Counted from the stretch's first letter, positions 9,243 through 40,658 are shown. The stretch: 64,000 nucleotides of DNA from Rhodothermales bacterium (GCA_965116435.1 OZ220686.1:1082844-1146843), one strand, 5' to 3'. Numbers and translations are program-made. Notes: generated by a model not told the origin, from the sequence alone.

Positions 9243-9278
9243 GGAAGAAGGGCTGGATCGGATCGGCAGCAATTATAA

Positions 9279-14866: not shown

Positions 14867-14992
14867 TTAAGGTGCAGGGTTGCAAACTTGTTCCGATCCA
14901 TTAGATCCAAGGATGTTATGCCTCGACGCACCCGCAGAATCCGGTAGCACATCCAGCAACAGACGAACCTGTGCAACATAGCGTTCAAGCAT
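14867..14992 (-). pseudogene. Possible 41-codon remnant of an AbiEii-type nucleotidyltransferase toxin gene
   Basis: Its ATG overlaps the abiEi stop (ATGCTTGA), as in intact abiEi-abiEii operons. The peptide MLERYVAQVRLLLDVLP... stops after 41 codons, where a toxin of about 250-300 aa would be expected. Confidence 0.3.
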
Positions 14993-18871: not shown

Positions 18872-18951
18872 GTGTCGGGGGTTAGGGGGTGTGGCGTATG
18901 TGCGGTATCGCGGTGCGTGCTGCCACCTGCGTTACCGCCCGCCTTCTGCGG

Positions 18952-19035
18952 TGCCCAAGAGAGGACTCGAACCTCCACGCCCTAACGGGCACATGACCCT
19001 GAATCATGCGCGTCTACCAATTCCGCCACTTGGGC
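18952..19035 (-). tRNA. tRNA-Leu (anticodon CAG)
   Basis: The reverse complement GCCCAAGTGGCGGAATTGGTAGACGCGCATGATTCAGGGTCATGTGCCCGTTAGGGCGTGGAGGTTCGAGTCCTCTCTTGGGCA folds as a class II tRNA. It has a 7-bp acceptor stem, the anticodon loop TTCAGGG, a long variable arm and a GTTCGAGTC T-loop. Confidence 0.9.
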
Positions 19036-19295: not shown

Positions 19296-19370
19296 TCCTC
19301 GGTAGCTCAATGGTAGAGCATGCGGCTGTTAACCGCAGGGTTGTAGGTTCGAGTCCTACCCGGGGAGCCA
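19296..19370 (+). tRNA. tRNA-Asn (anticodon GTT), CCA encoded
   Basis: In TCCTCGGTAGCTCAATGGTAGAGCATGCGGCTGTTAACCGCAGGGTTGTAGGTTCGAGTCCTACCCGGGGAGCCA the acceptor TCCTCGG pairs with CCGGGGA. The anticodon loop is CTGTTAA and the T-loop is GGTTCGAGTCC. The island begins immediately 3' of it. Confidence 0.92.
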
Positions 19371-19396
19371 ACATTCTGTCGGCTCAATGGAGAAGA

Positions 19397-19867
19397 GTGG
19401 TGGCGGTACCACTTGCAGACCAGATCATACGGAAGGTCAAGCAAGCGGCTGAACTCTATCACCGGCTGCTTTTGGTCGTCGCGCCGGCGGGTGCGGGAAA
19501 GACGACTGCGCTTCATGATGTACAGGATCGCACCGGTGCGCCCCTCGTCAACGTCAACCTGGAGCTATCCCGCCTGATGCTGGAATTGACAGAGCGTCAA
19601 AGGGCGCTACAGTTGCCTCATCTTCTCAGGGCGATCGTCGGCAATGGGGGCGGAGAGATGATTCTGCTCGACAATATTGAAATCCTCTTCGATTCCAGTC
19701 TGAAGCAAGACCCGCTTCGGCTACTCCAGGGACTCTCCCGCAACAAAACCGTCGTGGCTGCATGGAACGGCGCCATCGTTGAAGATTCTTTGACCTATGC
19801 CGCTCCAGGTCACCCGGAATACAAGCGCTATCCGATGCGCGATTTTCTGGTGGCAAGCCCGGAGTGA
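19397..19867 (+). CDS. brxF: Small P-loop ATPase, BrxF-like (BREX type 3 marker)
   Basis: The listed ORF 19277-19867 starts inside the tRNA, so GTG at 19397 (or 19400) is the likely start. Walker A is LLLVVAPAGAGKTT. A Walker B-like motif is EMILLDNIEILF. The tail reads PLRLLQGLSRNKTVVAAWNG..LTYAAPGHPEY. Size (~156 aa) and position directly upstream of brxC fit BrxF. Confidence 0.65.
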   Translation: MVAVPLADQIIRKVKQAAELYHRLLLVVAPAGAGKTTALHDVQDRTGAPLVNVNLELSRLMLELTERQRALQLPHLLRAIVGNGGGEMILLDNIEILFDSSLKQDPLRLLQGLSRNKTVVAAWNGAIVEDSLTYAAPGHPEYKRYPMRDFLVASPE

Positions 19868-19909
19868 CGATATGAAAATTACAAATTCCATTGCAAGGAA
19901 GCAGCCACA

Positions 19910-22900
19910 ATGAAATACGGTGACCTGATCCAGTTTGAACCCATTGAGTCCGTGGTCCAGCTGCGGAACGCCGACGAAGCGACTGCGGCACGGCAACTTG
20001 TCGAGACCTACGTTATTTCAGAGGAGATGGCGGAAACGCTGGTGGGCCTTGTCATTCCCCAGCTGCAGTTCGAGCACCCCACCGACAACAAAGGCCTTCT
20101 GGTGGTCGGTAACTACGGCACCGGTAAGTCCCACCTGATGTCGGTGATCTCCGCACTTGCGGAAAACGCCGACCTCGCCCCCTTCTTGAACAATTCAGAC
20201 GTGGCGGATGCCGCCGGAAAGATCGGCGGACGATTCAAGGTGGTTCGCACCGAAATCGGGGCCACCACCATGTCACTTCGGGACATCCTCGTGGCCGAGT
20301 TGGAAGAGCACCTTGAGGACATGGGCGTGAGTTACAGCTTCCCCTCTGCGGATCAGGTATCCAACAACAAGCGGTCCTTTGAAGAGATGATGACCGCGTT
20401 TCATCAGGAGTTTCCAGACCACGGACTGCTCCTCGTCGTGGACGAACTGCTTGATTATCTGCGCACGCGCAGGGACCAGAAACTCATCCTGGATCTGAAT
20501 TTTCTCCGTGAAATCGGCGAGGTCTGCAAGGACCTGCGCTTCCGCTTCATGGCCGGCGTTCAGGAAGCGATCTTCGACAGCCTACGCTTTTCCTTTGTGG
20601 CGGACAGCATCCGCCGGGTACGGGATCGCTTCGAGCAGGTCCTGATCGCCCGCAAAGACGTCAAGTTCGTAGTGGCCGAGCGACTGCTCAAAAAGACCGG
20701 CGAACAGCAGGCCAGGATACGCGAGTACCTGACGCCCTTCGGCATGTTCTACGGCCACATGAACGAGCGCATGGACGAGTTCGTCCGCCTCTTTCCGGTA
20801 CATCCCGACTATATCGACACCTTCGAGCGGGTGACCGTCGTGGAGAAGCGCGAGGTATTGAAGACCCTCTCGCTGGCCATGAAGAAGATACTCGACCAAG
20901 ACATACCGGACGACCGGCCCGGGCTCATTGCCTATGATACCTACTGGACCAATCTTCGGGAGAACCCCTCGTTTCGTGCCGTACCGGATATCAAGGAAGT
21001 GATCGACTGCAGTCAGGTACTGGAGTCCCGTATCCAGCAGGCCTTTACGCGCCCGACTTACAAGCCCATGGCATTGCGGCTCATTCACGCCCTGTCGGTT
21101 CATCGGCTCACCACGAACGACATTTACACCACCCTGGGTGCAACAGCCGGGGAACTGCGGGACGGGCTCTGCCTCTATCAACCAGGCATTGAGGATCTGG
21201 GCGGTGATCCGGCCGACGACCTGCTCTCCCAGGTGGAGACAGTGCTGCGGGAAATCCACAAGACGGTCAGCGGGCAGTTCATTTCATCGAACCCGGACAA
21301 CCGCCAGTTCTATCTGGACCTGAAGAAGACCGACGACTTCGACGCGCTGATCGAAAAGCGGACAGAGAGCATCGACTCCTCAACACTGGACCGTTATTAC
21401 TACAAAGCCCTGAAACGGGTCATGGAGTGCACGGACCAAACCTATGTGCGCGGCTACAAGATCTGGCAGCACGAACTGGAATGGCTGGAGCGCAAGGCCG
21501 CGCGTCAGGGGTATCTGTTTTTCGGTGCGCCCAACGAACGGTCCACCGCTGTGCCGCCGCGGGATTTCTACCTCTACTTCATCCAGCCCTTCGATCCACC
21601 GCCCTTCAAGGATGAAAAGAACGCCGACGAGTTGTTCCTGCGACTCACGAACCCGGACGACGAATTTCGCACCTCGCTCATGAGTTACGCGGCAGCCCTG
21701 GACCTGGCCTCCACCTCGTCAGGGCACGCCAAGTCCACTTACGAGTCCAAGTCATCCCATTTTCTGCGGGATATTGTGCAATGGCTACAAAAGCACATGA
21801 GTGACGCCTTCGAGGTCACCTATCAAGGCCGCGCCAAGTCGCTCACTGAATGGGCCAAGGGCAAATCGATCCGGGAGCTATCCGGCATCGGCTCCCATGA
21901 GCGCATCAACTTCCGCGACCTTGTGAACACGATCTCCGGCATCTGCCTGGGAGCCCATTTCCAGGATCAGGCGCCTGAATATCCCTTCTTCTCGGTGCTC
22001 ATCACCGGGACCAACCGGGACCAGGCCGCGCAGCATGTCTTGCGCGCCATCGCCAGCCAGAATCGAACCAGGCAGGCTACGGCGGTGCTCGACGCCTTGG
22101 AACTGCTCGACGGCGAACGACTCGACCCCTACAAATCGAAATACGCCAAACACATCCTTGGACTACTCAATAAGAAAGGCCACGGTCAGGTGGTCAACCG
22201 CTCCGAGCTGATCCAGGATGACAAGGACGTGGAATACATGGACAAGGACCGGCAGCGGCTGGAACCTGAATGGGTTGCGGTCGTGCTGGCCGCCCTGGTC
22301 TACGCCGGTGATCTGGTCCTCGCCATTCCGGGCAAGAAATTCGACGCTACCGGTCTGTCGCAGCTGGCAGGAACCGGCATCGACGAACTCACGCAGTTCA
22401 AGCATATCGAACAGCCCAAGGACTGGAACCTTCCGGCGCTCAAGGCCTTGTTCGAACTGCTCGGTCTCACTCCCGGCATGGCCCAGCTTGTCACTCAGGG
22501 CAAGGAAGAGCCTGTCCAGCAGCTCCAGAAAGCTATCTCCCAGATGGTGGATAAACTGGTGCTTTCGCGGCAGAGCCTGGAAAGCGGTCTACTTTTCTGG
22601 GGCCGAAATCTCCTGGCCGAGAAAGAGGCGCAAAAACTTCGCATCCGGCTTGATAAGACCAAGATCTTCCTGGAATCGCTCCAGGCGTACAGCTCGCCCG
22701 GAAAGCTCAAGAACTTCCGCTATGACGCGCAGGAGGTAACCGCCCATCGGAACGAGCTCAATTCCCTGGCTGAAATCGAATCCCTCCAAGAACTGGTCGC
22801 TGATCTCGGTTCCACCGCCTCCTTCCTCTCCACCGCCGAAGCGGTTCTGTCCGCCGAACACGAGTGGGTAGGCAAGATGCACGAGGCACGGGACGAAGTG

Positions 22901-23638
22901 CTCGCCCAGCTTCGTGACCCGGACAAGCGCGAGACCGCCACCTTCCGTCAGCAAACCCAGCGCAAACTGATCGACCTCAAAAAGGCCTATGTGCAGACCT
23001 ATCTGGGAATGCACACCAGGGCACGGTTGGGCGTGAACGAGGACAGGCGCAAGAACGGCCTCATGGGAGATGAACGGCTCAAAGTGCTGCAGAAGCTCTC
23101 CACCATCGAGTTGATGCCCCTCCAGCACCTGATTGACTTTCAAAATCGTTTGGCCGGATTGAAAGGCTGCTTTGCCCTCACCGGGCAAGAGATGGACGCT
23201 TTACCGGTATGCCCGCACTGCAGCTATAAACCAGAGGCGGAGCCGCCTGCCGCACCTGCCGGAACGGTGCTGGACGGCTTGGACGACGAACTGGACAATC
23301 TGGTGGCCAACTGGACCCAGACGCTGCTCGCCAACCTGGAAGATCCGACCACCAAGGGCAACCTGGACCTGCTCAGGCCCGAACCCAAAATTCTGGCAAA
23401 CGACTTTATCAAGAAGCGGGAGCTACCCAACAATCTCGGCCAGGATTTCATCCATGCACTGAGCGAGGCGCTTTCCGGCCTTCAAAAGGTTCCCGTCAAG
23501 ACCGAGGACCTGCGAGCGGCGCTGCTCTCCGGCGGTTCACCGGCAACACCGGTTGAGATGAAGAAACGATTCGAGGAATATCTGGACGAACTTACCAAGG
23601 GCAAGGAACCCGGCAAGGTGCGCATCGTGCTGGAGTGA
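19910..23638 (+). CDS. brxC: Large BREX ATPase, BrxC/PglY family
   Basis: 1242 aa. The N-terminus is [34 protein letters not shown]. Walker A is [11 protein letters not shown] and Walker B is [13 protein letters not shown] long helical C-terminal half contains a CPHC element. Confidence 0.8.
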
Positions 23639-23642
23639 AATC

Positions 23643-25499
23643 ATGACTCAAAATGAACTGGCCAATCTGCTCAACGCTCATGAATGGCGAGATGTTGAGT
23701 TCAAGGAGGCGCAACGGAACGTGCCGCGAAACGCCTATGAAACGGTTTCCGCTTTTGCGAATACCGAAGGCGGTCATCTCGTGTTCGGCGTTCGGAAAAG
23801 TGGACAAGATTTCGAATTTGTCGGCGTTCTTGATATCGACAAGGTTCAGAACGATTTCCTGACAGCACTGCGACAACGCGACAAGCTGAGCATCATTGTG
23901 AATGTTCGTGAAGAACTGCACAAATACGGCGAATCAGACTTGCTCATTTTCTACGTGCCGGAAGCCCATCGCTCGGAAAAACCGGTTTTCCTGAATGGCG
24001 ACATTCGTCGATCATATGTGCGCAGTGGCGGCTGCGATGTGCGCTGCTCGGACAATGAGCGGAGCCGATTCCTTGTGGATGCTGCTGCCGAACGATATGA
24101 CGGCCAGCCTGTTGACCTGAACCCAAGTACGGCGTTCGACAGGGAAAGCATCAAATGGTATCGGGCCTTTTATGAAATAAGGCCGGGAAACCGATCTCAC
24201 GCAACGCTATCCGACACAGATTTCCTAAAGGAACTGGGGTTGCTGGTTGAAGAGCACGGCGAAGTGTCTCCGTCGCGCGCTGCGATTTTTCTGTTTGGGA
24301 CCAATGCGACTTTCCGGCAACTCCTTCCACGGCCGGTAGTGGACTGCCAGAGGTTCTCGCTGCCTCGTGACAGGGCTGATGTCGGTGAGCGATGGATTGA
24401 CCGTCTCGTTCTCGACGAAAACCTCATTCGGTCCTGGCAATCCCTTATCGATTGGTACCAAAGATTCGCGGAGCGGCCATTCAGAATTGACCCAATAACC
24501 TTGCAGCGAGATGACGCACCGCCGGACTACCGCGCCTTTCGTGAATCCATGGTCAACCTGATCATCCATCAGGATTATTCCGATCATTCCAGGAATCCGG
24601 AAATACGTCACTATACCGACCGGACCGTCTTTTGGAATCCTGGCGATGCCTTCGCTGCTGATACAGACCTGCTTGAACCCGGTGAAAAAGAGGTCCGAAA
24701 TCCCAGGATCGTGACCGCTTTCCGGCGCATAGGGCTGAGCGAGAACGCTGGCTGGGGTCTGCGAGATGTCTTCCGCAATTGGCAGCAGTTGGGCCATGTT
24801 CCGCCGACGATTGCTAACAACAAGGGGCGCAAGTGTTTTGAGCTCATTCTCAAAAAAGAAGAACTCATGTCGGAACAGCAGATTCTTTTCCAGGCAAGCC
24901 TCGGTGTGCAGCTCAGCAACGAACAAGCCAGGGTGCTTGCTTTTGCCTGCCGCGAAAGTATAATCTCACTTCCGCAAGTCAAGGCCGTAACGGGTCTTGC
25001 CGGACCGGATGCCGCGGAGCTTGCCAATGCCCTGGTTACAAAATCTCTCCTCAGGACCCTTGAGGACAGTAGAAAATACGCCTTGGCAGAGCACTTGAAG
25101 AAAATGTTCCACCAAACCGACCAAGCCACTGACCAACCTGATGTACGGGCCGAAAACTTGTCCACTGCACAAGTCGAAGGCCAAGAGGAAGACTTGTCCA
25201 CTGGACAAGTTCCTGTCCTTGCAGAACTTTCCGAAACTCATTGGAAAATCATAGCGTTATGCGATGTACCCCGCCGCTTGGCCGAGATTCTGGAAGCCCT
25301 TGGCGTAACCAACAGGGGTTATTTCAAGGAACACCACCTTGACCCACTGATTCAGTCCAAGATTGTGGCGATGACCAACCCGGAGAACCCCCGGGCATCA
25401 AACCAGAGATACGTAATCACCGAAGCGGGCGCTTTGTTGAAAGCACGCCGCATGTCTGACGACACCGACCGAAGCGAGGATCAGAATGGCAATGTTTAG
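23643..25499 (+). CDS. AlbA_2 (Schlafen-like) + HATPase_c_4 + winged-helix protein (RecG-like putative DNA-binding regulator)
   Basis: The N-terminus EWRDVEFKEAQRNVPRNAYETVSAFANTEGGHLVFGV is the AlbA_2 signature. The middle ..YRAFRESMVNLIIHQDYSDHSRNPEIRHYTDRTVFWNPG is HATPase_c_4-like. The C-terminal wHTH-like segments end ..HHLDPLIQSKIVAMTNPENPRASNQRYVITEAG. It starts 5 bp after the brxC stop and overlaps the next gene by 14 bp. Confidence 0.75.
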   Translation: MTQNELANLLNAHEWRDVEFKEAQRNVPRNAYETVSAFANTEGGHLVFGVRKSGQDFEFVGVLDIDKVQNDFLTALRQRDKLSIIVNVREELHKYGESDLLIFYVPEAHRSEKPVFLNGDIRRSYVRSGGCDVRCSDNERSRFLVDAAAERYDGQPVDLNPSTAFDRESIKWYRAFYEIRPGNRSHATLSDTDFLKELGLLVEEHGEVSPSRAAIFLFGTNATFRQLLPRPVVDCQRFSLPRDRADVGERWIDRLVLDENLIRSWQSLIDWYQRFAERPFRIDPITLQRDDAPPDYRAFRESMVNLIIHQDYSDHSRNPEIRHYTDRTVFWNPGDAFAADTDLLEPGEKEVRNPRIVTAFRRIGLSENAGWGLRDVFRNWQQLGHVPPTIANNKGRKCFELILKKEELMSEQQILFQASLGVQLSNEQARVLAFACRESIISLPQVKAVTGLAGPDAAELANALVTKSLLRTLEDSRKYALAEHLKKMFHQTDQATDQPDVRAENLSTAQVEGQEEDLSTGQVPVLAELSETHWKIIALCDVPRRLAEILEALGVTNRGYFKEHHLDPLIQSKIVAMTNPENPRASNQRYVITEAGALLKARRMSDDTDRSEDQNGNV

Positions 25500-28353
25500 G
25501 CATGATGCTGGACAGCGGCAGTTGTTCAAAACCAAGCTGGTCCCGGGCAATGCGGAATCGGGCAATCTCTTTAAAGAGGAGGTGGTCACGGACGATGATC
25601 CGGTGGAATGCCTCGGCATAATCTTCGAAAGCAATGAGAAACGCCGCGAGTATTTCCTGGAGAAGTTGCGCGAAAAACTCGAGGATCCTGAGTTCCGCAA
25701 GATCGAAGGGTTCCCCATTGGTGAGGACGAGGACATCCTGGCCTTGTCCGACCCGCCGTACTACACGGCTTGCCCCAATCCATTCATCGAAGACTTTATC
25801 AAGCACCACGGGAAGCCGTATGATCCAGCTACTGATGATTATCGAAGAGAGCCCTTTGCGGCTGATGTGAGCGAAGGGAAGACCGACCCAATGTATAATG
25901 CTCACGCTTACCACACAAAAGTCCCTTATAAGGCAATCATGCATTACATCCTGCACTATACAGAACCAAATGACCTTGTTTTCGATGGTTTCTGCGGCAC
26001 AGGCATGACTGGCGTAGCGGCTCAAATGTGCGGTGATACCGAGATCGTAAAAGAGCTTGGTTACTCGATTAGTGAAGATGGCTCATTGACATCGAAACGC
26101 CACGTACATGATATTCAGCAGCAGATTCAAATAGGGACGCGAAATGCCCTAATAAGTGACCTCTCACCCATTGCTGCTTTCATTTCTGCTAACTACTGCT
26201 TGCCATTCGATGTTGACGCGTTTCAAAGAGCAGGGACACGCCTGCTTGAGGACGTCGAACGTGATGTGGGGTGGATGTATGAGACTGCTCATTCAGATGG
26301 TCGTCGTGCAGGAAAGATCAACTTCACAGTATGGAGTGATATCTATGCATGCCCTGAATGCGCCGAAGAGATTGTTTTTGTGGAGCAAGCATTCGATCCT
26401 GATGAAAAGCGAATAAGGGACAACTTCGCTTGCCCAGGCTGCAGTGCGTCGCTTACCAAGAATGATTTAGAGCTGTTGTACAGTTCATACATCGACGCAG
26501 CAACTAACGAAACTGTTCGTCATCCCAAGCGCAAACCTGTCTTCATCAATTACTCCATCGGAAAGTCCAGATTTACCAAGAGAGTGGATGTCGATGATTT
26601 GGAGAAACTGAAAAAAATCGGCCAGCTACCTCTTCCTCCAGAAATTCCAACTCTCGAACTTCCTGATTCACAAATGCGGCGTGTTGGCCGAATGAAATCA
26701 GCAGCCGTCACGCATATTCATCATTTTTTCCTTCCTCGACCTGCTCAAGCGCTTGCATCTTTATGGCGGAGTGCTTTGGCGATTGAGGAACGACGCCTTC
26801 GGAATATGGCAGTATTCTTTGTTGAGCAGGCGATCTGGGGACTTTCGATTTTGAATCGCTTCAGCCCATCCCATTTCTCTCAAGTTAATCGTGCACTATC
26901 AGGAGTGTTTTACGTACCCTCACAGATCTCGGAAGTCAGCCCTAATTATGTGCTATCTGGAAAACTGAACCGCTTGGTCTCAGCGTTTTCAGGGCAACAT
27001 ATTCGGGATTCCAAGGTGATGATCTCAGTCGCCGATTGCGCTCAAACTCGAATCTCAGACAACTCGATTGACTATGTTTTCACTGATCCTCCGTTTGGTG
27101 AGAATATTTACTACGCAGATCTAAATTTATTGCTTGAATCATGGCATGGTTTATTAACTGCACCCGCACGGGAAGCGATAATTGATCGTGCACGCGGAAA
27201 AGCACTCAATGATTATCAAGCACTAATGGAGGAATGCTTTAGTGAGTACCATCGTGTATTGAAACCTGGGAGATGGATAACGATTGAATTTCACAATTCG
27301 AAAAATAGTGTGTGGAACTCAATTCAAGAGGCTCTTCAGAAATCAGGATTCGTAATAGCTGATGTTCGGATGCTCGATAAAAAACAGTGTTCATTTCAAC
27401 AAGTAACCAGTCGAGGCGCCGTCAAGCAAGACCTCGCGATTTCAGCTTACAAGCCAAATGGTGGAATCGAGGATCGCTTTAAATTGACCGCCAGCACAGA
27501 GGATGGTGTTTGGGATTTCGTTCGGACGCATCTGAAGCAGCTCCCAGTATTTGTTTCAAAAGATGGCCAAGCTGAAGTTGTCGCTGAACGTCAGCACTAC
27601 TTGCTTTTCGATCGAATGGTGGCCTTCCATGTCCAGCGCGGTGTGACGGTTCCCATGTCCGCTGCAGAGTTCTACGCCGGCCTCGAACAACGTTTTCCCC
27701 CACGTGACGGTATGTATTTTCTGCCGGACCAAGCAGCCGAGTACGATAAGAAACGGATGACGGTCAAGGAAGTGCTCCAGCTTCAGATCTTCGTCTCCGA
27801 CGAGGCGTCTGCTATTCAGTGGCTCAAGCAGCTGCTCACCAAGAAGCCACAGACCTTCCAGGATGTCCACCCGCAATTCCTAAGGGAAATCGGCGGTTGG
27901 CAAAAACATGAAAAGGTGTTGGAGCTTTCCGAACTGCTGGAACAAAACTTCCTCCGTTACGACGGCAAAGGCGATGTGCCCAGCCAAATTCACAGCCACC
28001 TGTCCTCAAACTACAAGGAACTGCGCAATCTGGCAAAGGACGATCCAGCGCTCAATGCCAAAGCCAAGAACCGCTGGTACGTGCCCGACCCGAACAAGGC
28101 TGGCGACTTGGAGAAGCTACGCGAGCGGGCCCTGATGCGGGAGTTCGAGGAATACCGTGAATCGAAACAGAAACGCCTGAAGATATTCCGCCTGGAGGCT
28201 GTCCGGGCCGGATTCAAGAAGGCATGGCAGGAGCGCGATTACGCCACGATCATCGCCGTGGCCCGCAAGATACCCGAAAAAATTCTCCAGGAGGACCCCA
28301 AACTCCTCATGTGGTACGACCAAGCACACACCCGTTCAGAAGAGGGGACATGA
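25486..28353 (+). CDS. pglXI: DNA methyltransferase (N6-adenine/N4-cytosine type), PglXI-like
   Basis: 955 aa. The SAM-binding motif is VFDGFCGTGMTGVAAQ and the catalytic motif is YVFTDPPFGENIYY. An extra N-terminal LSDPPYYTACPNPF is present. A zinc ribbon CPECAEE..(20)..CPGC lies between the motifs. Confidence 0.8.
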   Translation: MAMFRHDAGQRQLFKTKLVPGNAESGNLFKEEVVTDDDPVECLGIIFESNEKRREYFLEKLREKLEDPEFRKIEGFPIGEDEDILALSDPPYYTACPNPFIEDFIKHHGKPYDPATDDYRREPFAADVSEGKTDPMYNAHAYHTKVPYKAIMHYILHYTEPNDLVFDGFCGTGMTGVAAQMCGDTEIVKELGYSISEDGSLTSKRHVHDIQQQIQIGTRNALISDLSPIAAFISANYCLPFDVDAFQRAGTRLLEDVERDVGWMYETAHSDGRRAGKINFTVWSDIYACPECAEEIVFVEQAFDPDEKRIRDNFACPGCSASLTKNDLELLYSSYIDAATNETVRHPKRKPVFINYSIGKSRFTKRVDVDDLEKLKKIGQLPLPPEIPTLELPDSQMRRVGRMKSAAVTHIHHFFLPRPAQALASLWRSALAIEERRLRNMAVFFVEQAIWGLSILNRFSPSHFSQVNRALSGVFYVPSQISEVSPNYVLSGKLNRLVSAFSGQHIRDSKVMISVADCAQTRISDNSIDYVFTDPPFGENIYYADLNLLLESWHGLLTAPAREAIIDRARGKALNDYQALMEECFSEYHRVLKPGRWITIEFHNSKNSVWNSIQEALQKSGFVIADVRMLDKKQCSFQQVTSRGAVKQDLAISAYKPNGGIEDRFKLTASTEDGVWDFVRTHLKQLPVFVSKDGQAEVVAERQHYLLFDRMVAFHVQRGVTVPMSAAEFYAGLEQRFPPRDGMYFLPDQAAEYDKKRMTVKEVLQLQIFVSDEASAIQWLKQLLTKKPQTFQDVHPQFLREIGGWQKHEKVLELSELLEQNFLRYDGKGDVPSQIHSHLSSNYKELRNLAKDDPALNAKAKNRWYVPDPNKAGDLEKLRERALMREFEEYRESKQKRLKIFRLEAVRAGFKKAWQERDYATIIAVARKIPEKILQEDPKLLMWYDQAHTRSEEGT

Positions 28354-30986
28354 TGGCTAAGAAACAAATTTTTAAAACCGACTTCACCCGGACTACCGGA
28401 CCTACTGATCCGGAAGCACTTTTCCACAATTTACGGGGAAGGGCTCCAGACATTAAGCACCTTTGGTCGCACCAAGCCGATCTTCTTCGAGACTATCACC
28501 AAAAGTGTCTTGAAGCAAGAGATGTGGCTATTGAGCTCCCTACGGGATCAGGAAAGACACTTGTAGGCTTGCTGATCGCAGAATGGCGACGGCAATCGTT
28601 TAATGAGCGTATCGCCTACCTATGCCCCACTCGTCAGCTTGCTTATCAAGTTGGATCGCAGGCTAATAACTATGGAATTAGAGCCCATGTGTTGGTTGGA
28701 CAGCAAAGCTACTATCCTCCTCAAGAATTCAGCGAATATCAATCAAGTCGTGCTATCGCGGTAACCACATATAGTGGGGTGTTCAATAGATATCCAAGAA
28801 TTGAAGATGCACAGACATTGATTCTGGACGATGCACATGCGGGTGAAAATTTCATGGTCAGCATGTGGTCCGTGGAAATATCTCGTTCATCCATTGATAA
28901 TACCTACTTTTCGATTGTTGAACTTTTGCAAAATGCGCTGAATTCAGGATTCTATTCAAACATTTCAGATCGCACTGATCGGGATTCGACGAAAGCTCGT
29001 ATGACAGAGGTAGAGCTAATCGCTGGAGCTTCAATCCGTAAACACGAGGATGCCATCAGAGACCTTCTTGACGAGAATCTTGAAAAAAAGACATCTCCAT
29101 GGTATGCGTGGAATAATGTTAGAGAAAATATCACCGCTTGTAATTTTTTTATTTCTTGGGATACAATTCTCATCCGGCCATTCATTCCACCAACTCAAAC
29201 CCACGCGCCATTCGAGCAGGCGATTCAAAGAGTTTATATGTCGGCAACATTAGGAGCTGGTGGAGAACTGGAACGTATTACCGGCATCAAGTCTATAAAG
29301 CGTTTGCCCCTTCCCCTAGGATGGGACAAACGAGGTAGCGGACGGAAGTTATTCCTTATTCCAGAACTATCAATGATCAACGAAAAAATGATTGAAGTTG
29401 TAAAAGATGCAGTGCAAAAATTCGACCGAAGTCTTATTCTTATTCCTAGTCGATATGACTCTGAAGGTGCTGATCTAATCAACGTTATTGATCGATTAAA
29501 TATGAAAACATTTCATGCTGCTGACATTAAGGACAGTCTCGACCCATTTCTGAGTAGCACTAACTCCGCCTTGATTCTTTCGCGTTACGACGGATTAGAT
29601 TTACCTGACGAAGCCTGTCGCCTGCTTATTTTTGGTGGACTACCCAGCGGGACCAATCTGCAAGAAAAGTTTCTGTGGTCCAAAATAGCAGCCTCTTCGC
29701 TATTTAGAGATCGCGTGATAACACGTTTTGCCCAAGGCGTTGGCAGGTGTACGCGATCTGATAATGACTATGCTGTTGTATTGATGATCGGCCGTCGGTT
29801 GATTGATTTTCTTTTGAAGAATGAAAATCGTCAAATTTTGAATCCAGAATTGCAGGCAGAGATTAAGTTCGGCATGGAGAATTCCAGAGACAAGTCTGTA
29901 GAAGATTTTCAGGAACTGCGGAGAGTGTTCTTGTCACAGGGCGATGATTGGAAAGACGCAGAATCTGCGATTCTCGCTCTGCGAGATAGCTGTTCTCGCC
30001 ATGATGATCCAATCTCAAGGAAGCTAAATTCTGTGGTTGCCGATGAGGTTTCCTATCTCTATGCAATGTGGAGCAACAATTTTGAAGATGCGCTTGAGCA
30101 CGCGCGAAAAGCCGCGGATGCGCTTGGTGGTGATGAGACAAAGGCATATCGAGCATGGTGGTATTACCTTTCTGCTGAAGCGGCGATGGTTCTTTATGAA
30201 ACCACTGGAAAGGAAGCCTATCAAGATACCGCCCGAAACTTCCTTAAACGTGCCACTCGATGTTGTACCGGTGTTAGTTGGTTTGCACGCTTGGGGCGAT
30301 CATTCAATACCGGTGGTGAGACTCTGGAAATCAATGAAAAAATTGCGATAGCCGTTGAGACAATCAGAGGGCATTTGGCTAATTGGGGTGCTGTGGGTCA
30401 ACTGTTTGAACAGCAACTCACTCAGGTCATGAATAACATCCAATCCATTGAACACAAGGCATTTCATCAAGGACTCAAGGGGCTAGGTGAGATGCTTGGT
30501 TTCTACTCAGAATTGCCAGAAGGGGACGCTGCGCCTGATTGCATTTGGTCCGTTGGAAATCTAATCTATGTAGTACATGAGGCCAAATCGGAACACACGC
30601 CAAAGGACCCTATCGGGGTCAACGATATCCGGCAGGCGCAAAGCCACGGTAACTGGGTCCGGGCCAATCGAACATGTGAAGATAATACCGAAATTATCTG
30701 TCTGATTGAGAGCCCACGTGTAGCAGTAGCTCCAGAAGCCATTGCTCATGCTGAGTCTCTTTACCATGTGACCCCTGCACAGCTGAAAGAATTGTTTGAC
30801 AAGACCGCTGGCATTCTCCGGCGAGTCAGATCGAAGTTGACCGATCTCAGTGATGAGAAAGTCCTTGAGGAGCTATCACGCGAACTCATAACGGGCAGCC
30901 TTACACCTATGCGATTGGTGGAAAGGTTTTCCCAAATGCCTGTTGCCAACATGGAAAGGCGTGGCGGTAGAGGAAACAGCAGTTGA
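28350..30986 (+). CDS. SF2 helicase (DinG/XPD-like C-terminal motifs) fused to a C-terminal PD-(D/E)xK nuclease-like module; occupies the BrxHII position
   Basis: The start ATGATG overlaps the methylase stop (ATGA). Motif I is ELPTGSGKTLVG, motif II is LILDDAH and motif III is MSATLG. Helicase_C_2-like blocks are LILSRYDGLDLPDEACRLLIFGGLP and FAQGVGRCTRSDNDYAVVLMIG. The C-terminal ..APDCIWSVGNLIYVVHEAKSEHT..IRQAQSH fits D...ExK...Q. Confidence 0.75.
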   Translation: MMAKKQIFKTDFTRTTGPTDPEALFHNLRGRAPDIKHLWSHQADLLRDYHQKCLEARDVAIELPTGSGKTLVGLLIAEWRRQSFNERIAYLCPTRQLAYQVGSQANNYGIRAHVLVGQQSYYPPQEFSEYQSSRAIAVTTYSGVFNRYPRIEDAQTLILDDAHAGENFMVSMWSVEISRSSIDNTYFSIVELLQNALNSGFYSNISDRTDRDSTKARMTEVELIAGASIRKHEDAIRDLLDENLEKKTSPWYAWNNVRENITACNFFISWDTILIRPFIPPTQTHAPFEQAIQRVYMSATLGAGGELERITGIKSIKRLPLPLGWDKRGSGRKLFLIPELSMINEKMIEVVKDAVQKFDRSLILIPSRYDSEGADLINVIDRLNMKTFHAADIKDSLDPFLSSTNSALILSRYDGLDLPDEACRLLIFGGLPSGTNLQEKFLWSKIAASSLFRDRVITRFAQGVGRCTRSDNDYAVVLMIGRRLIDFLLKNENRQILNPELQAEIKFGMENSRDKSVEDFQELRRVFLSQGDDWKDAESAILALRDSCSRHDDPISRKLNSVVADEVSYLYAMWSNNFEDALEHARKAADALGGDETKAYRAWWYYLSAEAAMVLYETTGKEAYQDTARNFLKRATRCCTGVSWFARLGRSFNTGGETLEINEKIAIAVETIRGHLANWGAVGQLFEQQLTQVMNNIQSIEHKAFHQGLKGLGEMLGFYSELPEGDAAPDCIWSVGNLIYVVHEAKSEHTPKDPIGVNDIRQAQSHGNWVRANRTCEDNTEIICLIESPRVAVAPEAIAHAESLYHVTPAQLKELFDKTAGILRRVRSKLTDLSDEKVLEELSRELITGSLTPMRLVERFSQMPVANMERRGGRGNSS

Positions 30987-31013
30987 GAACTGAAGAAAAA
31001 ACCCTGGAACTGA

Positions 31014-31262
31014 GTGAACTGCTTCATAATTAAGATTGATGCAAAAAACCGATATTTTAGTCCGGACCATGGACAAATCTGCCAGACCATCAAGACCCAG
31101 ATGCTCTGGGGCGAGACGACCTGTCGGGTATGGCTATCCAACCGCGATTCGATGGTCCGCGTCCCTGCATCCAGGCTGCCCCCCCTGAAGGATTCAAGAA
31201 CAAGAACCGCTACCGGAAATGACGCCTCTCCTTATCTTACGGGTTACAGGAGGTACCCATGA
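31014..31262 (+). CDS. Doubtful 82-codon ORF in the helicase-pglZ spacer; its stop overlaps the pglZ ATG
   Basis: ORF-track entry. It ends ..YRRYP* with TGA overlapping the ATG of pglZ (ATGA). The segment GQICQTIKTQMLWGETTCRVWLSNRDSMVRVPASRLPPL could be a small beta-rich domain or a gene remnant. There is no independent support. Confidence 0.2.
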   Translation: MNCFIIKIDAKNRYFSPDHGQICQTIKTQMLWGETTCRVWLSNRDSMVRVPASRLPPLKDSRTRTATGNDASPYLTGYRRYP

Positions 31263-33265
31263 GTAACTGGCGCGACCAGATTCTCAGGGAGTTCACTCCC
31301 CATGTCGCCCGGCTGACCCTGGTTGCCGATCCAGACGGGCTGCTCCTGGAAGAAGGGGTTATTGGGAGCATACGCGAGCGTGGTTTTGAATTGATTCCGT
31401 TCGAGGATCATGTCGCCTTTCGCTACGCCTACGAATCCAGATTTCGCTCCCGCTGGGATCAGGGTGAGCAGACGGATTTGGTAGTCGTGCTGCGCTCTGC
31501 GGAGAGCGACCTCGGCTATCTGCCATACGATCTGCTCCAGGCAGGTCGCAAATTTTCATTCAACCTCGGGGATATCTTCCCCAGCCTGAGCTATCCAATC
31601 GTGACCGCCTTGGATCGGGGGGATCTGGATGCGCTCTACGAAGCCCAGAAGCAGCAGCACCCCGGAGTGCTGGGCGACAATGCTACAAAGGAATTCGTTC
31701 TGTGCCATGTCTTTGAGATCGATCCAGAACTCATCCGCAAGCCGTCCGATCTACTGCGGGTGCTGCTGCGCCGCCACTATCGGGAACAGCACATCCCCGC
31801 TTTGCTTGACGAGCGCTTTATTCAGATCCTGCGCCAACAGAGCGATTTTGAAGGGTGGCCCCTCGAAACGATTATCCCGGATCGAGAAGCCTTTTTCGCC
31901 TTTCTCCAGGAACGCTGGCCCATCTTCTTAAATCGGGCGGCAACCCAGGTTACCACCAGCACTCGCGAGGATGAGAAGCCCTGCGACCTTGAGTATCCCG
32001 GTCCTTCGAACTTGCCCTTCGACCATGACGACATCCGTGTCTATATCGACAACCTCTTTGTTGAAGGACTGCTTGAAGCGGTTGCCCATGATCAAGCCAA
32101 GTCGCTCTCCAGGACTTGGCTCGCCATAGGCATCCGAACGGACGAGCATGCGGACCGGGCGAGGCGCGTGGAGGGACTCCTCGATACCTTGGCGTCCGAT
32201 ATTCCGAATGAGGACACGCGGCACGAGGACTGGTTTCACTTTGCCAAAACCTGGGCGGAGCTTGTAGCGTTGGTGCTGGGTCCGAATGCGGTACTGCCGG
32301 AACCGGCGCGGCAGAAGATGGGAGCGCTTCAAGCTCAGATCGATGCCGCACTCGTGCCGTGGCTAACAAAACGCTACGCAGGATTGGTCAGCCTGCCTCC
32401 GGTTCCTCCGGTCATGCTCCATCATATTCCCCGTTTCCTCTCCCGCCATATTCACAATGGGAACCAACACAAGGTTGCGTTTATCCTGATGGACGGCCTT
32501 GGGCTGGATCAGTGGATCGTCATCCGAAAAGAAATCGCCAAACAGCGAGCCAATTACCGCTTTCGTGAGAACGCCGTGTTTGCCTGGATACCGACCATCA
32601 CGTCTGTTTCGCGCCAGGCTGCTTTTGCAGGAAAACCACCGATCTATTTCCCGAACAGCATCCATACCACCGACAAAGAACCGGCGTTGTGGACACAATT
32701 TTGGGCCGACCAAGGGCTTACACAGCAGGAAGTCGCATATGCCAAGGGACTGGGGAACGGCCCCCTGGAAAGTGTGGAGGAGATTGTTGCCCGGCCCAAG
32801 ACGCGGGTGGTCGGTCTGGTTGTCGACAAAGTGGACAAGATCATGCACGGCATGGAACTTGGCGCAAAGGGCATGCACAACCAGGTTCGCCAGTGGGCCG
32901 AGGGGCCATTCATGACGCAACTGTTTGACTTGCTTCTGGAAAACGGATTTCGTGTTTACCTGTCGTCGGATCACGGCAATATTGAAGCATCAGGTTGCGG
33001 CCGACCTGCAGAAGGAGCCGTGGCAAACCTGCGCGGAGAACGTGCTCGGATTTATTCCGATTCCTTGCTGCGAGGTCGGGTTAAGGAACGCTTCCCGGAC
33101 GCTTTGGAATGGCCTCCTATCGGGCTGCCGGAGGATTATTGGCCCCTGCTTGCTCCGCCTCGCGCCGCGTTTGTGCCCAAGACCAGAAACCTTGTCGGGC
33201 ATGGCGGCGTCGCTCTCGAAGAACTCATCGTCCCGCTTGTTCGGATTGAAAGAAGAGACACATGA
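31259..33265 (+). CDS. pglZ: PglZ alkaline-phosphatase-superfamily protein (BREX)
   Basis: 668 aa. The PglZ core reads VAFILMDGLGLDQW, FAWIPTITSVSRQAAFAG, VDKVDKIMHG and VYLSSDHGNIEA. Confidence 0.85.
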   Translation: MSNWRDQILREFTPHVARLTLVADPDGLLLEEGVIGSIRERGFELIPFEDHVAFRYAYESRFRSRWDQGEQTDLVVVLRSAESDLGYLPYDLLQAGRKFSFNLGDIFPSLSYPIVTALDRGDLDALYEAQKQQHPGVLGDNATKEFVLCHVFEIDPELIRKPSDLLRVLLRRHYREQHIPALLDERFIQILRQQSDFEGWPLETIIPDREAFFAFLQERWPIFLNRAATQVTTSTREDEKPCDLEYPGPSNLPFDHDDIRVYIDNLFVEGLLEAVAHDQAKSLSRTWLAIGIRTDEHADRARRVEGLLDTLASDIPNEDTRHEDWFHFAKTWAELVALVLGPNAVLPEPARQKMGALQAQIDAALVPWLTKRYAGLVSLPPVPPVMLHHIPRFLSRHIHNGNQHKVAFILMDGLGLDQWIVIRKEIAKQRANYRFRENAVFAWIPTITSVSRQAAFAGKPPIYFPNSIHTTDKEPALWTQFWADQGLTQQEVAYAKGLGNGPLESVEEIVARPKTRVVGLVVDKVDKIMHGMELGAKGMHNQVRQWAEGPFMTQLFDLLLENGFRVYLSSDHGNIEASGCGRPAEGAVANLRGERARIYSDSLLRGRVKERFPDALEWPPIGLPEDYWPLLAPPRAAFVPKTRNLVGHGGVALEELIVPLVRIERRDT

Positions 33266-34038
33266 GCACAGGGAGAGACCGACGGCACAGCCAGATTGGC
33301 CTGGATCGGCTTGTTCGGCTTGACTGGTTAGAGCAAACTGCCTATCTGGTCCTGGCCGGGAACGAAGCGCATAAAATGAAAACTATCCTGCAGGAGGAAC
33401 TTTCAGATGCGTTCCGCTCCAGCAACGCCGATGTGCGAGGTTCGCTCGACAAAACAATCACCATTTTGTTGAGGATTTGGGCGGGCGTTTCAGGCAATCT
33501 CCATCCACTTCGGGAAGATGGGCTCAATCTACTCTCAAGCCTGCCTCGGAAAGACCATATTGCAGTTCATTGGGGTATGACCATGGCGGTTTACCCTTTT
33601 TGGGGTTCGGTCGCCGCCCATACAGGACGGCTACTCAGGCTTCAAGGCACGGCGGCAAGCGATCAAATACAGCGCAGAGCGCGGGAGCAATACGGAGAGC
33701 GCGAAACGGTCTCTCGTCGAGTTCGCTATGTGCTGCGCAGCTTTATTGACTGGAACGTACTGGAAGAGACGCGAGTCAAGGGGACTTACAGCCAAGGAAA
33801 CCACTATCTGGTTGAAGAACCCAAGCTCATTGCCTGGATGATGGAAGCATCCCTCCACGCCCGGGTGAACGGGTCGGCCGCCATAAAAGACCTGCTCGAC
33901 AGCCCGAGCATCTTTCCCTTCCGATTAACCCATATCTCAGCCGAACATGTGGCGTCGCTCTCGCCTCGTCTGAATATCCTTCGGCACGGACTGGATGACA
34001 ACCTTGTGATGCTACATGAAAAAGGAAGGAGAACATGA
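33262..34038 (+). CDS. Uncharacterised 258-aa protein, translationally coupled to pglZ; candidate BrxA-like component
   Basis: ATGA overlap with the pglZ stop. It is helical-looking, with no TM segment or catalytic motif that I can see. The BrxA assignment rests on its position as last gene of a type-3-like operon and on size only. I cannot confirm sequence similarity from memory. Confidence 0.4.
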   Translation: MSTGRDRRHSQIGLDRLVRLDWLEQTAYLVLAGNEAHKMKTILQEELSDAFRSSNADVRGSLDKTITILLRIWAGVSGNLHPLREDGLNLLSSLPRKDHIAVHWGMTMAVYPFWGSVAAHTGRLLRLQGTAASDQIQRRAREQYGERETVSRRVRYVLRSFIDWNVLEETRVKGTYSQGNHYLVEEPKLIAWMMEASLHARVNGSAAIKDLLDSPSIFPFRLTHISAEHVASLSPRLNILRHGLDDNLVMLHEKGRRT

Positions 34039-35551: not shown

Positions 35552-35558
35552 ACTGCGG

Positions 35559-36499: not shown

Positions 36500-36752
36500 G
36501 GATGCACTGATCAAATCCACTTCGATCAGCGCTTCACGTACGCAAGTAGCGTTTGTAATGATTCCATCGGTAAAATCATCGGAAAACACGGCGCTTGGCG
36601 GCGTCGGGGTCGTGAAGCGCCCTTCGGGAGGCAGCGAGGAGTGTGCTGGCGGCGTCATTCCTCATTACGTGGGGCCTGCCACGCTGCTTCGTCATTCCTT
36701 GCCAGCACACCCCTCGCTGCCTCTGATCTTCGCGGACTTAATCAGTGCATCC
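36500..36752 (+). mobile_element. MITE-like element, full copy 3
   Basis: GGATGCACTGATCAAATCCACTTCGATCAG ... CTGATCTTCGCGGACTTAATCAGTGCATCC. It lies between lysR and its divergent neighbour. Confidence 0.85.
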
Positions 36753-40405: not shown

Positions 40406-40658
40406 GGATGCGCTGATTAAGTCCGCGAAGATCAGAGGCAGCGAGGGGTGCGCTGGCAAGGAATGACGAAGCAGCGTGGCAGGCCCCACGTAATGAGGAA
40501 TGACACAGCCAGCGCGCTCCTCGATGCCTCCCGAAGAGCGCTTCACGACACCGACGACGTCAAGCACCGTGTTTTCCGATGATTTTAACGATGAAATCAT
40601 TACAAACCCCACTCGCGTACGTGAAGCACTGATCGAAGTGGATTTGATCAGTGCATCC
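40406..40658 (-). mobile_element. MITE-like element, full copy 4 (inverted)
   Basis: Flanked by TAAA (40402-40405) and TAAA (40659-40662). Its last base plus the duplicated TA form the thiD stop codon (TAG, 40658-40660). Confidence 0.85.

Follow-up and report, generated by a model that had tools for sequence, protein, structure and literature searches.

A mosaic BREX type 3 locus with a deleted brxHII gene and probable accessory defense genes in a Rhodothermales bacterium

Which defense system lies beside the tRNA-Asn gene of a Rhodothermales bacterium, and is any part of it new? BREX type 3 was reportedly defined by Goldfarb et al. in 2015, and a first-pass annotation of a 64,000-nt stretch of this genome (GCA_965116435.1 OZ220686.1:1082844-1146843, the whole of which we call the window) had read positions 19296-34038 as a BREX type 3-like operon with one extra gene, an atypical helicase, and a mechanism not yet described. 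Our analysis indicates that this island is probably a horizontally acquired mosaic BREX-3 locus in which brxHII is dead and two self-contained accessory defense genes occupy two variable slots: a Schlafen RNase-HisKinase-like-wHTH gene between brxC and pglXI (slot 1) and an Hna-family ATPase-nuclease gene between pglXI and brxHII (slot 2).

Results

Seven intact ORFs, all on the plus strand and closely packed, lie between tRNA-Asn and a converging MFS gene. The features of the island and its borders are as follows.

19296-19370, plus strand: tRNA-Asn (GTT), the left border of the island (ARAGORN; Rfam tRNA, 70 bits)
19397-19867, plus strand: brxF, small P-loop protein (PADLOC BrxF, E 2e-75, full length; NCBIfam BREX_3_BrxF)
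19910-23638, plus strand: brxC/pglY, 1242-aa ATPase of the DUF6079 type (PADLOC PDLC02482; Pfam DUF6079)
23643-25499, plus strand: Schlafen RNase (AlbA_2)-HATPase_c_4-wHTH gene (Pfam SLFN_AlbA_2, HATPase_c_4, and Fic-like_C)
25486-28353, plus strand: pglXI (BrxXI), N6-adenine methyltransferase (PADLOC PglXI, 1446 bits; Pfam N6_N4_Mtase)
26032-31046, no strand: strain-variable block (blastn against L166/L167; GC trough)
28350-30986, plus strand: Hna-family gene, 878 aa (profile match to Hna in the PDB; AF2 and Foldseek; PADLOC PDC-S28)
31026-31266, plus strand: brxHII pseudogene remnant, 241 bp (tblastn with L020 BrxHII; frame check; collinearity with L163)
31259-33265, plus strand: pglZ, BREX-3 phosphatase-family protein (NCBIfam BREX_PglZ_3; PADLOC PglZ)
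33262-34038, plus strand: brxA, 258 aa, the right end of the island (PADLOC BrxA, 334 bits, E 1e-100, residues 6-254)
34181-35749, minus strand: MFS sugar transporter gene, converging on the island (Sugar_tr, E 2e-116)

The brxF start is most likely a GTG codon at 19397 or 19400, 26 to 29 bp past the tRNA and preceded by GGAG, and homology to the related locus L001 (L numbers denote related loci) ends exactly at 34038, the brxA stop. Going down the operon, the first two ORF junctions are gaps of 42 and 4 bp, the next two are overlaps of 14 and 4 bp, and the last two are a gap of 272 bp and an overlap of 4 bp; most of these junctions agree with those first reported, although a 5-bp gap measures 4 bp and a 273-bp spacer measures 272 bp. 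GC fractions, in gene order, are 0.57, 0.58, 0.53, 0.49, 0.46, 0.57, and 0.54, whereas the flanks on either side are at 0.62, and GC3 of the Hna-like gene is 0.41 versus 0.7 to 0.8 in host genes. ORFs and base composition bear out the description of a lower-GC, plus-strand block that starts just after tRNA-Asn and stops at the convergent MFS gene, but whereas the entire block lies below its flanks, the deep trough is formed by pglXI and the helicase gene only and coincides with the segment exchanged between strains. As had also been noted, the flanks examined contain no integrase, and the tRNA 3' end is not repeated in the window (0 additional matches with up to 3 mismatches allowed).

PADLOC, NCBIfam, and Pfam profiles assign BrxF, BrxC, PglXI, and a BREX-3 PglZ, as well as BrxA, and the type 3 call stands; BrxF, BrxC, and PglZ, the families set beforehand as its test, were all three assigned by the profile searches. 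BrxF (Walker A, APAGAGKT) scores 196 bits on BREX_3_BrxF (cut-off, 50), BrxC reaches 2073 bits on PDLC02482 over residues 1-1242 and 1895 bits on DUF6079, and PglZ scores 864 bits on BREX_PglZ_3 against a cut-off of 250 and 1027 bits on PADLOC PglZ. In PglXI, the motifs run in the order FxGxG to DPPF, with a 4-Cys zinc ribbon inside the central insert. Because family E-values reach 0, chance matches are not a concern. The 258-aa terminal protein, previously called unknown, is BrxA by PADLOC.

The 272-bp "spacer" before pglZ is a pseudogene remnant made up of the two ends of a deleted Snf2 helicase gene, brxHII. BrxHII codons 1-64 (31026-31217) are joined out of frame to the final 17 codons and stop (31213-31266), and an 82-codon ORF at 31014-31262 falls within the remnant. 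Queried with L020 BrxHII, tblastn aligns residues 1-64 at 70% identity (E 6e-24) and the final 17 residues at 76%; an alignment collinear with L163 gives an internal deletion of 2562 bp, and the identical junction occurs in L001, L165, and L166/L167. No other match to BrxHII, a protein of about 940 aa recognized by a Swi2/Snf2 core, an N-terminal TUDOR domain, and an inactive REase, was detected elsewhere in the 64-kb window. The 878-aa helicase-nuclease was considered as a candidate BrxHII and rejected: it matches no SNF2 or BrxHII model, and tblastn against true BrxHII returns chance-level fragments only, whereas a true BrxHII from L004, used as a control, scores 1577 bits on PDLC02500.

The segment from the center of pglXI through the cargo gene has been exchanged between strains. 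Against L166/L167, blastn identity is 96% up to 26031 and resumes at 31047, delimiting a block that holds the cargo gene together with the central and 3' parts of pglXI on one side and the first part of the brxHII remnant on the other; comparison with L165 places the breakpoints at 25490 and 31079. PglXI and its conspecific L165 allele share 18 to 50% identity over residues 151-650 and 82 to 96% at both ends. At the same chromosomal site, the cargo of conspecific strains is an ABC-ATPase pair or a DUF3800 gene, and the pglXI allele differs in each case; the pglXI-to-pglZ interval is therefore a recombining cassette slot. L001 has about 90% DNA identity on either side, yet encodes a GmrSD_N gene exactly where the Hna-like gene sits. 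In a set of 53 BREX-3 loci, this slot is either empty or occupied by Ppl, NsnB-like, GmrSD_N, Mrr-STAND, SIR2, IetS, or RT-UG6 genes. The final 125 to 150 bp of pglXI retain 84 to 96% DNA identity across loci that are otherwise unalignable, and we infer that exchange proceeds by homologous recombination anchored in this conserved 3' end and in the brxHII 5' stub.

The gene now in slot 2 had been described as a DinG-like helicase fused to a nuclease and as an atypical BREX helicase. The domain description is correct (a DinG/XPD-like SF2 ATPase followed by a C-terminal PD-(D/E)xK nuclease; Pfam DEAD, ResIII, and Helicase_C_2), but profile and fold place the protein in the Hna family, and it is not an odd BrxHII. 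PADLOC assigns it to PDC-S28 (394 bits), with no match to its BrxHII models; a profile search against the PDB retrieves S. meliloti Hna (10uj/9yhn) at E 3e-62; and the AF2 model (pLDDT 86.7) has Hna 9yhn as its top Foldseek match (E 3e-36, TM 0.63/0.67 over 893 columns), with DinG following as the second family at 4e-13. SF2 motifs I, II, and VI (GSGKT, DDAH, and QGxGRCTRS) are invariant across 37 homologues, as are the nuclease residues D730, E744, and K746, which align to the PD...ECK of Hna. There is no Fe-S cluster domain, residues 1-300 containing only three scattered Cys (C53, C92, and C264).

In slot 1, the Schlafen protein scores above the respective cut-offs on SLFN_AlbA_2 (53.5 bits), HATPase_c_4 (43.3 bits), and Fic-like_C (34.8 bits) and has no match to BREX models. 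Its catalytic motif, E14-x4-E19-x-K21, is intact (EWRDVEFK at residues 14-21 of the translation) and conforms to the Ex4(E/D)xK given for prokaryotic Schlafens in bioRxiv 10.1101/2025.07.24.666596. Of 39 related loci, 13 have a full-length relative (identity of 44% or higher, query coverage of 63% or higher) between brxC and pglXI, and 10 further loci have more divergent matches or remnants. A 2026 survey catalogues the Schlafen-HisKinase-wHTH class in the vicinity of BREX and BR loci, with at least 1017 taxa represented (PMC12839542). This seventh gene is thus additional to the BREX core, as first noted, but not unusual. The seven-gene layout, which the first-pass annotation would have called ordinary if already common, recurs (L024 and L034) but is uncommon, at 2 of 53 species-representative loci.

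Discussion

By analogy with characterized systems, the locus is predicted to methylate its own DNA at a specific motif and to exclude unmethylated phage DNA. PglXI would methylate a strain-specific motif on host DNA, as its characterized relatives suggest, and BrxC, BrxF, PglZ, and BrxA would keep unmethylated incoming DNA from replicating, on the model of BREX-1. The Hna-like protein would serve as an independent back-up, predicted from S. meliloti Hna to be a single-gene abortive-infection defense triggered by phage SSB. A second back-up may be provided by the Schlafen protein, which by analogy would cut tRNA upon a phage cue and act against phage, although Schlafen-HisKinase-HTH is not among the two defending Schlafen constructs in the available text of bioRxiv 10.1101/2025.07.24.666596. 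The literature searched contained no experimental study of BREX-3, and the earlier statement that the mechanism is not described applies to the BREX-3 core only, both structure and mechanism having been published for Hna.

Does the core still defend? Once BrxHII is gone, a BREX-3 system might go on methylating yet no longer defend, and the core could then be a decaying relic since the brxHII loss, with only the methyltransferase and the embedded genes still mattering. Such a reading would accord with the brxHII pseudogene, with the status of BrxHII as a core component found in 77% of type 3 loci (PMC12839542), and with L161/L162, close relatives of the cassette in which transposase fragments have replaced the upstream BREX genes. 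We nevertheless consider it unlikely. All six other ORFs are full length against profiles, and over the divergence since the shared deletion, dN/dS is 0.12 to 0.36 for brxC, the Schlafen gene, pglXI, pglZ, and brxA, against 0.68 for the brxHII remnant, which has an in-frame stop in L001; the core genes are under purifying selection after the deletion, although dN/dS is blind to whether methylation alone or defense is maintained. Because the survey finds BrxHII in 77% of type 3 loci, its absence here falls within described variation. Full-length BrxHII is likewise missing from 26 of 53 related loci, which keep intact PglXI, PglZ, and BrxA matches (and BrxC wherever the fetched DNA extends that far), and several independent deletion junctions among related loci point to repeated, tolerated loss.

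It is also conceivable, but to our minds improbable, that the Hna-like protein is an integrated BREX-3 component, a nuclease arm licensed by the core that aids or replaces BrxHII. Homologues with at least 64% identity always directly follow pglXI, their start overlapping or abutting its stop; the BREX-3-embedded genes group as a single clade in an NJ tree, which carries no bootstrap values; and their sister group occurs within Hma systems (DUF499 ATPase, DUF1156 methyltransferase, and Snf2), likewise between methyltransferase and Snf2 helicase. The single clade and the start overlap could reflect functional integration rather than independent cargo, and BrxHII is missing from all four window-like loci (the window, L024, L034, and L035). 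However, at least four loci combine the Hna-like gene with an intact Snf2-type BrxHII (L061, L082, L101, and L163), brxHII loss is equally common in loci with non-helicase cargo, unrelated systems fill the same slot in sister strains and species, and S. meliloti Hna suffices as a single gene (introduction of bioRxiv 10.1101/2025.11.12.688083). There is a similarly small chance that a distinct Hna subfamily, always placed between methyltransferase and Snf2 helicase genes, has co-evolved with the homologous BREX-3 and Hma ATPase-methyltransferase-Snf2 cores. It would then degrade DNA as an arm coupled to these cores, perhaps under license from their methylation or sensing machinery, and may take over when BrxHII is lost; if so, the window lineage would be a natural BrxHII knockout with BREX-3 still working. 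Co-occurrence with intact BrxHII and the slot swaps lead us to regard the Hna-like gene as cargo.

Comparison with known systems

The locus resembles BREX type 3 (Rakesh and Krishnan, NAR 2026, PMC12839542) in its full-length BrxF, DUF6079-type BrxC, PglXI, PglZ, and BrxA, in its canonical gene order, and in a PglXI with an internal TRD and 4-Cys finger; it differs in that brxHII is cut to a 241-bp remnant, two non-core genes lie inside the operon, and the pglXI center and cargo gene vary between conspecific strains. The auxiliary effectors in that survey include Schlafen-HisKinase-wHTH proteins and REase-SF2 helicase fusions, and the Schlafen gene of the window, like those auxiliary Schlafens, sits inside a BREX locus. 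It also has the AlbA_2/Slfn Ex4ExK motif, HATPase_c_4 domain, and C-terminal wHTH of the pSlfn-HisKinase-HTH class (bioRxiv 10.1101/2025.07.24.666596).

Hna, a helicase-nuclease, is an abortive-infection system of a single gene (Sather et al. 2023, cited in bioRxiv 10.1101/2025.11.12.688083; PDB 9YHN, 9YKJ, and 10UJ) and in S. meliloti is an ATP-autoinhibited 3'-5' ssDNA exonuclease without an Fe-S cluster that phage SSB releases, leading to abortive infection (bioRxiv 10.1101/2025.11.12.688083). The window protein, for which Hna is the top PDB match by both sequence and fold, shares its order of HEL1, HEL2, and PD-(D/E)xK, its DinG/XPD-like character without the Fe-S cluster, and its E-x-K motif, with K746 aligning to the catalytic Lys (K729 of that paper). 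Unlike Hna, it falls in the candidate class PDC-S28 of PADLOC, has an invariant Trp at the position aligned to Hna R36, and is not free-standing, its subclade being restricted to BREX-3 loci, with the sister group in Hma loci; it shares only about 21% identity with S. meliloti Hna, and trigger and regulation may differ accordingly.

The hmaABC operon of Type-1 BR systems is presented as an insertion hotspot for defense genes in PMC11232893. Its three-gene core is homologous (ATPase, PglXI-like methyltransferase, and Snf2 helicase) and is interrupted by foreign genes such as Ppl, AAA_21 pairs, and DUF262, cargo of the kinds that also fill the BREX-3 slot here. The PglZ, BrxA, and BrxF of the window mark it as BREX-3, not Hma, and Hna cargo in Hma loci is not reported in the available part of that paper. 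Overall, the locus is informative yet essentially an ordinary composite of known parts, and the one remaining lead is an Hna subfamily restricted to loci of the BREX-3 and Hma types.

The island is a BREX type 3 locus

Seven plus-strand open reading frames (ORFs) follow a tRNA-Asn gene, extending up to position 34038, and the block is bounded as follows.

19296-19370, plus strand, tRNA-Asn, left of the island
34181-35749, minus strand, MFS sugar transporter, convergent neighbor of the island

Five of the seven products match BREX profiles, all at full length: BrxF (NCBIfam BREX_3_BrxF, 196 bits against a cutoff of 50), BrxC (PADLOC, 2073 bits, with Pfam DUF6079 also matched), PglXI (PADLOC, 1446 bits), PglZ of the BREX-3 type (NCBIfam, 864 bits against a cutoff of 250), and BrxA (PADLOC, E value of 1e-100). 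These assignments bear out the BREX type 3 call of the first-pass annotation and show that the 258-aa product of the last gene, previously listed as unknown, is BrxA. The third gene, which encodes SLFN_AlbA_2, HATPase_c_4, and Fic-like_C wHTH domains (the Schlafen gene), matched no BREX model in the profile searches, and its motif EWRDVEFK fits the pattern Ex4(E/D)xK of bioRxiv 10.1101/2025.07.24.666596. It had been regarded as an extra gene that sets the locus apart, but Schlafen-HisKinase-wHTH proteins are already described as auxiliary effectors within BREX loci, in at least 1017 taxa (PMC12839542).

The earlier description of a tRNA-Asn-linked, low-GC, seven-gene block holds for its ORFs, junctions, GC content, and MFS neighbor, and no direct repeat or second copy of the tRNA-Asn 3' end occurs within the 64-kb window. 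The junction lengths given there were close, if slightly inexact: the gap between the Hna-like gene (28350-30986, the fifth gene, between pglXI and pglZ) and pglZ is 272 bp rather than 273. The other junctions are a 42-bp gap (brxF-brxC), a 4-bp gap (brxC-Schlafen gene), and overlaps of 14 bp (Schlafen gene/pglXI), 4 bp (pglXI/Hna-like gene), and 4 bp (pglZ/brxA). GC content is 0.62 in both flanks versus 0.46 to 0.58 within the island, with a trough of 0.49 and 0.46 that is limited to pglXI and the Hna-like gene; GC3 is 0.41 in the latter versus 0.7 to 0.8 in host genes.

The most likely start of brxF is the GTG at 19397, which is preceded by GGAG and lies 26 bp past the tRNA, and the 196-aa BrxF ORF reported by the gene caller in the metagenome contigs L166/L167 suggests that the same tRNA-brxF junction exists there. 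This linkage is not general to BREX-3, since brxF has no tRNA upstream of it in L002, L013, L036, L082, and L101. Promoter and terminator scans performed at chance (9 found versus 8.8 expected and 15 versus 16.4 expected, respectively), so it is gene spacing only that defines the operon. A tRNA-Leu (CAG) gene (18950-19035, minus strand) and tRNA-Asn are divergent, with 260 bp between them. The tRNA-Asn is so near the start of the BREX operon as to leave no space for a separate promoter past it, and with brxF beginning 26 bp beyond this tRNA, read-through from the tRNA-Asn promoter may transcribe the operon.

The fifth gene belongs to the Hna family, and brxHII is a remnant

The 878-aa product of the Hna-like gene matches the PADLOC candidate PDC-S28 (394 bits), which has a single incidental mention in the literature, along with DEAD, ResIII, and Helicase_C_2. 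A profile built from 37 homologues hits PDB entries 10uj, 9yhn, and 9ykj, which represent Hna of S. meliloti, with an E value of 3e-62, and the best PDB match of an AlphaFold2 model (pLDDT of 86.7) is the Hna monomer (E value of 3e-36, TM scores of 0.63/0.67 over 893 columns), DinG and XPD being far weaker (about 1e-11 to 1e-13). Homologues down to 48% identity keep, without variation, the Walker A motif GSGKT, DDAH, QGxGRCTRS, and, in the nuclease, D730, E744, and K746. The window protein, ~21% identical to S. meliloti Hna, has an ExK motif that aligns to the ECK of Hna, and the 4-Cys cluster is absent from both. The helicase-nuclease is thus a member of the Hna family.

The helicase expected of BREX-3 is instead found, in pieces, in the spacer before pglZ. 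Canonical BrxHII, at ~940 aa, is of the Swi2/Snf2 type and RapA-like (PMC12839542), and intact genes were recovered from related loci, e.g., from L004, whose product reaches 1577 bits against PDLC02500, the PADLOC BrxHI|BrxHII model, and contains SNF2-rel_dom and Helicase_C domains. In tblastn searches of the window with related BrxHII proteins, 31026-31217 corresponds to residues 1 to 64 (70% identity, E value of 6e-24) and 31213-31263 to the last 17 residues (76% identity), and the two pieces are mutually out of frame. As judged by DNA collinearity with L163, whose Hna-like gene is the closest (85%) and whose BrxHII is intact, 2,562 bp of brxHII are missing from the window. The spacer is therefore a brxHII remnant. 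An identical deletion junction is present in L001 (a Rhodothermales MAG whose remnant has an additional in-frame stop), L165, and L166/L167, making the deletion ancestral to this lineage.

The first-pass annotation had considered the fifth gene an atypical BREX helicase, i.e., an unusual BrxHII. We reject this reading: the protein is of another helicase family and matched no BrxHII model in profile searches, a real BrxHII occurs alongside it elsewhere, and the window retains its own brxHII remnant. A link to the helicase-nucleases of Type-1 BR was also dropped, those proteins being Snf2 fusions.

The BREX-3 core remained under selection after brxHII was lost

As the window and L001 have the same deletion junction, their divergence postdates the deletion, and dN/dS between them reports on the period without BrxHII.

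dN/dS for window versus L001
brxC, 0.22
Schlafen gene, 0.16
pglXI, 0.12
pglZ, 0.36
brxA, 0.25
brxHII remnant (63 codons), 0.68

Purifying selection on the BREX-3 core persisted without BrxHII. The locus is, in effect, a natural BrxHII knockout and a useful experimental handle, and since its core stayed under purifying selection after the deletion, it makes the question of whether BrxHII is needed directly testable.

Related loci repeatedly lose brxHII and exchange cargo

Scanning species-representative genomes with a PglZ-3 alignment returned 506 loci, of which the best 80 were fetched; the 53 of these that span the pglXI-to-pglZ interval form the base of the census. BrxHII is present in 27 of the 53, typically ending 8 bp inside pglZ, and absent from 26. 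Its loss has been repeated, because several BrxHII-less loci retain remnants with different junctions (L002, L012, L013, L032, and the partly covered L060). The interval after pglXI holds varied, unrelated defense genes (Ppl plus Schlafen, an NsnB-like ABC ATPase plus partner, GmrSD_N, Mrr-STAND, SIR2, IetS, or a UG6-type RT) or is empty. The window-type Hna-like gene occupies it in four loci, three without BrxHII (L024, L034, and L035) and one with it (L061).

Among 39 loci scored for the brxC-pglXI interval, a full-length Schlafen-like gene (at least 44% identity across 63% or more of the query) is present in 13, a divergent Schlafen match in 5, remnants in 5, and none in 16. In L163 (6899-7147) and L164 (1354-1602), the place of the Schlafen gene is taken by a small gene of the DUF2188 type (PADLOC candidate PDC-S16, E value of 3e-21), which suggests that this first slot also swaps cargo. 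When gene order is compared with that of catalogued loci, as had been proposed, the exact seven-gene layout recurs in a gammaproteobacterial MAG (L024) and a Latescibacterota MAG (L034); it is thus not unique, though uncommon. Two further loci (L161 and L162) encode an Hna-like protein 84% identical to that of the window and keep the Hna-like gene, a ~271-bp gap, pglZ, and brxA; they show this island in a decayed state, as transposase (rve, DDE) fragments replace the upstream BREX genes.

Conspecific strains differ in pglXI and its adjacent cargo

L001 is 90% identical to the window in DNA over 20400-28339 and 88.5% identical over 30991-34038, has a GmrSD_N gene exactly at the position of the Hna-like gene, and loses homology at the brxA stop codon. 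Three metagenome contigs (L165, L166, and L167) have the chromosomal MFS, LysR, and HAD genes in common with the window at 96 to 97% identity, and on account of this flank, they represent conspecific strains in which BREX-3 occupies the same chromosomal position. In L165, the pglXI allele is different, with 58% identity overall (18 to 50% over residues 151 to 650 and 82 to 96% at both ends), and the cargo is an ABC-ATPase pair; L166/L167 combine a third pglXI allele (61% identity) with a DUF3800 gene. These strains differ only in the center of pglXI and the cargo gene, the variable block corresponding to 26032-31046 and matching the GC trough. For mapping PglXI specificity, and for learning whether the embedded systems act alone or with BREX, they form a matched set.

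The final 125 to 150 bp of pglXI (28201-28340) are 84 to 96% identical in DNA in almost all loci, and this 3' end is conserved across many phyla in BREX-3 loci whose remaining DNA is unalignable. Such conservation fits a recombination anchor beside the cargo slot, and we infer that the pglXI 3' end and the brxHII 5' stub act as anchors. Extra brxHII 5' ends (approximately codons 3 to 57) upstream of cargo genes (L016, 5345-5494; L068, 6598-6711; L072, 4230-4370; L045, 5786-5923), in L016, L068, and L072 together with an intact brxHII, resemble scars left where recombination inserted a cassette.

Hna-like genes occur in BREX-3, Hma, and free-standing contexts

When metagenomes were scanned with the Hna-like alignment, 80 loci were returned, and in these, context tracks identity to the window protein. 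At 64% identity or more, the gene lies within BREX-3, directly after pglXI (with BrxHII intact in L082, L101, and L163). At 48 to 60%, it is mostly in Hma systems, between HmaA and HmaB where contigs are long enough; no Hma gene is present in the available sequence of L083, L086, and L089. At 43% or less, tblastn detected neither BREX nor Hma genes within 10 kb, and sampled neighbors in L092 and L093 had no PADLOC match. Hma comprises the PADLOC families HmaA (Snf2 helicase), HmaB (DUF1156 methylase), and HmaC (DUF499 ATPase) and is the "Type-1 BR" of PMC12839542. In a neighbor-joining tree, the BREX-3-embedded proteins form a single clade whose sister is largely Hma-embedded, both nested among free-standing proteins, a placement that is only suggestive because the tree carries no support values.

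PMC11232893 describes the hmaABC operon as an insertion hotspot for defense genes (Septu, PARIS, Ppl, AAA_21 pairs, and DUF262 genes), and PMC12839542 places REase-SF2 helicase fusions among auxiliary effectors inside BREX loci; Hna is not named in the searchable text of either. The lead that emerges is a candidate Hna subfamily restricted to BREX-3 and Hma loci. In L091, the hmaA-hmaB interval contains, beside the Hna-like gene, a gene (5571-9806) for a 1,411-aa protein with N-terminal TmtA-like matches (E value of 2e-47), a further multigene insertion in an Hma locus.

Other features of the window

A dispersed intergenic repeat of ~255 bp is present at five positions, with two partial copies.

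9279-9529, full copy
11407-11659, full copy
36500-36752, full copy
40406-40658, full copy
45236-45488, full copy
57406-57521, partial copy
5982-6051, partial copy

It has a conserved core of ~65 nt with the hairpin CTCTGAT...ATCAGAG, matches no Rfam family, and occurs also in L001 and L165 at differing positions (88 to 93% identity to the L165 copies); it is possibly a MITE or a REP-like element. An AbiEi antitoxin/regulator gene (14985-15830, minus strand; PADLOC E value of 6e-79) lies in a patch of low GC (14 to 16 kb), 3.5 kb upstream from the island, and is perhaps a degraded second defense or toxin-antitoxin module, since no AbiEii partner is recognizable among neighboring ORFs. An ORF of at least 1,928 aa (3-5786, minus strand), extending past the window start and containing four Calx-beta repeats, probably encodes a surface or adhesin-like protein.

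DISCUSSION

We found no experimental study of BREX-3 in the searchable literature, and for this reason a well-resolved locus is a useful template. By analogy with BREX-1, the PglXI methylase would mark self DNA, and BrxC, BrxF, PglZ, and BrxA would then exclude unmarked DNA. The Schlafen protein is predicted from its sequence to respond to a phage cue by cutting tRNA. Abortive infection by Hna needs a single gene, whose product is a 3'-5' exonuclease on ssDNA, does not unwind DNA, and forms a dimer that is autoinhibited by ATP and activated by a phage SSB (bioRxiv 10.1101/2025.11.12.688083); by homology, at ~21% identity, the window protein may likewise be an SSB-triggered ssDNA exonuclease leading to abortive infection.

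Set against known systems, the locus is a BREX-3 with a dead brxHII and two embedded defense genes of known kinds, which occupy a slot subject to recombination between strains. The locus does not represent a novel type of system, and even its striking helicase-nuclease belongs to a family, Hna, with a solved structure and an already published mechanism.
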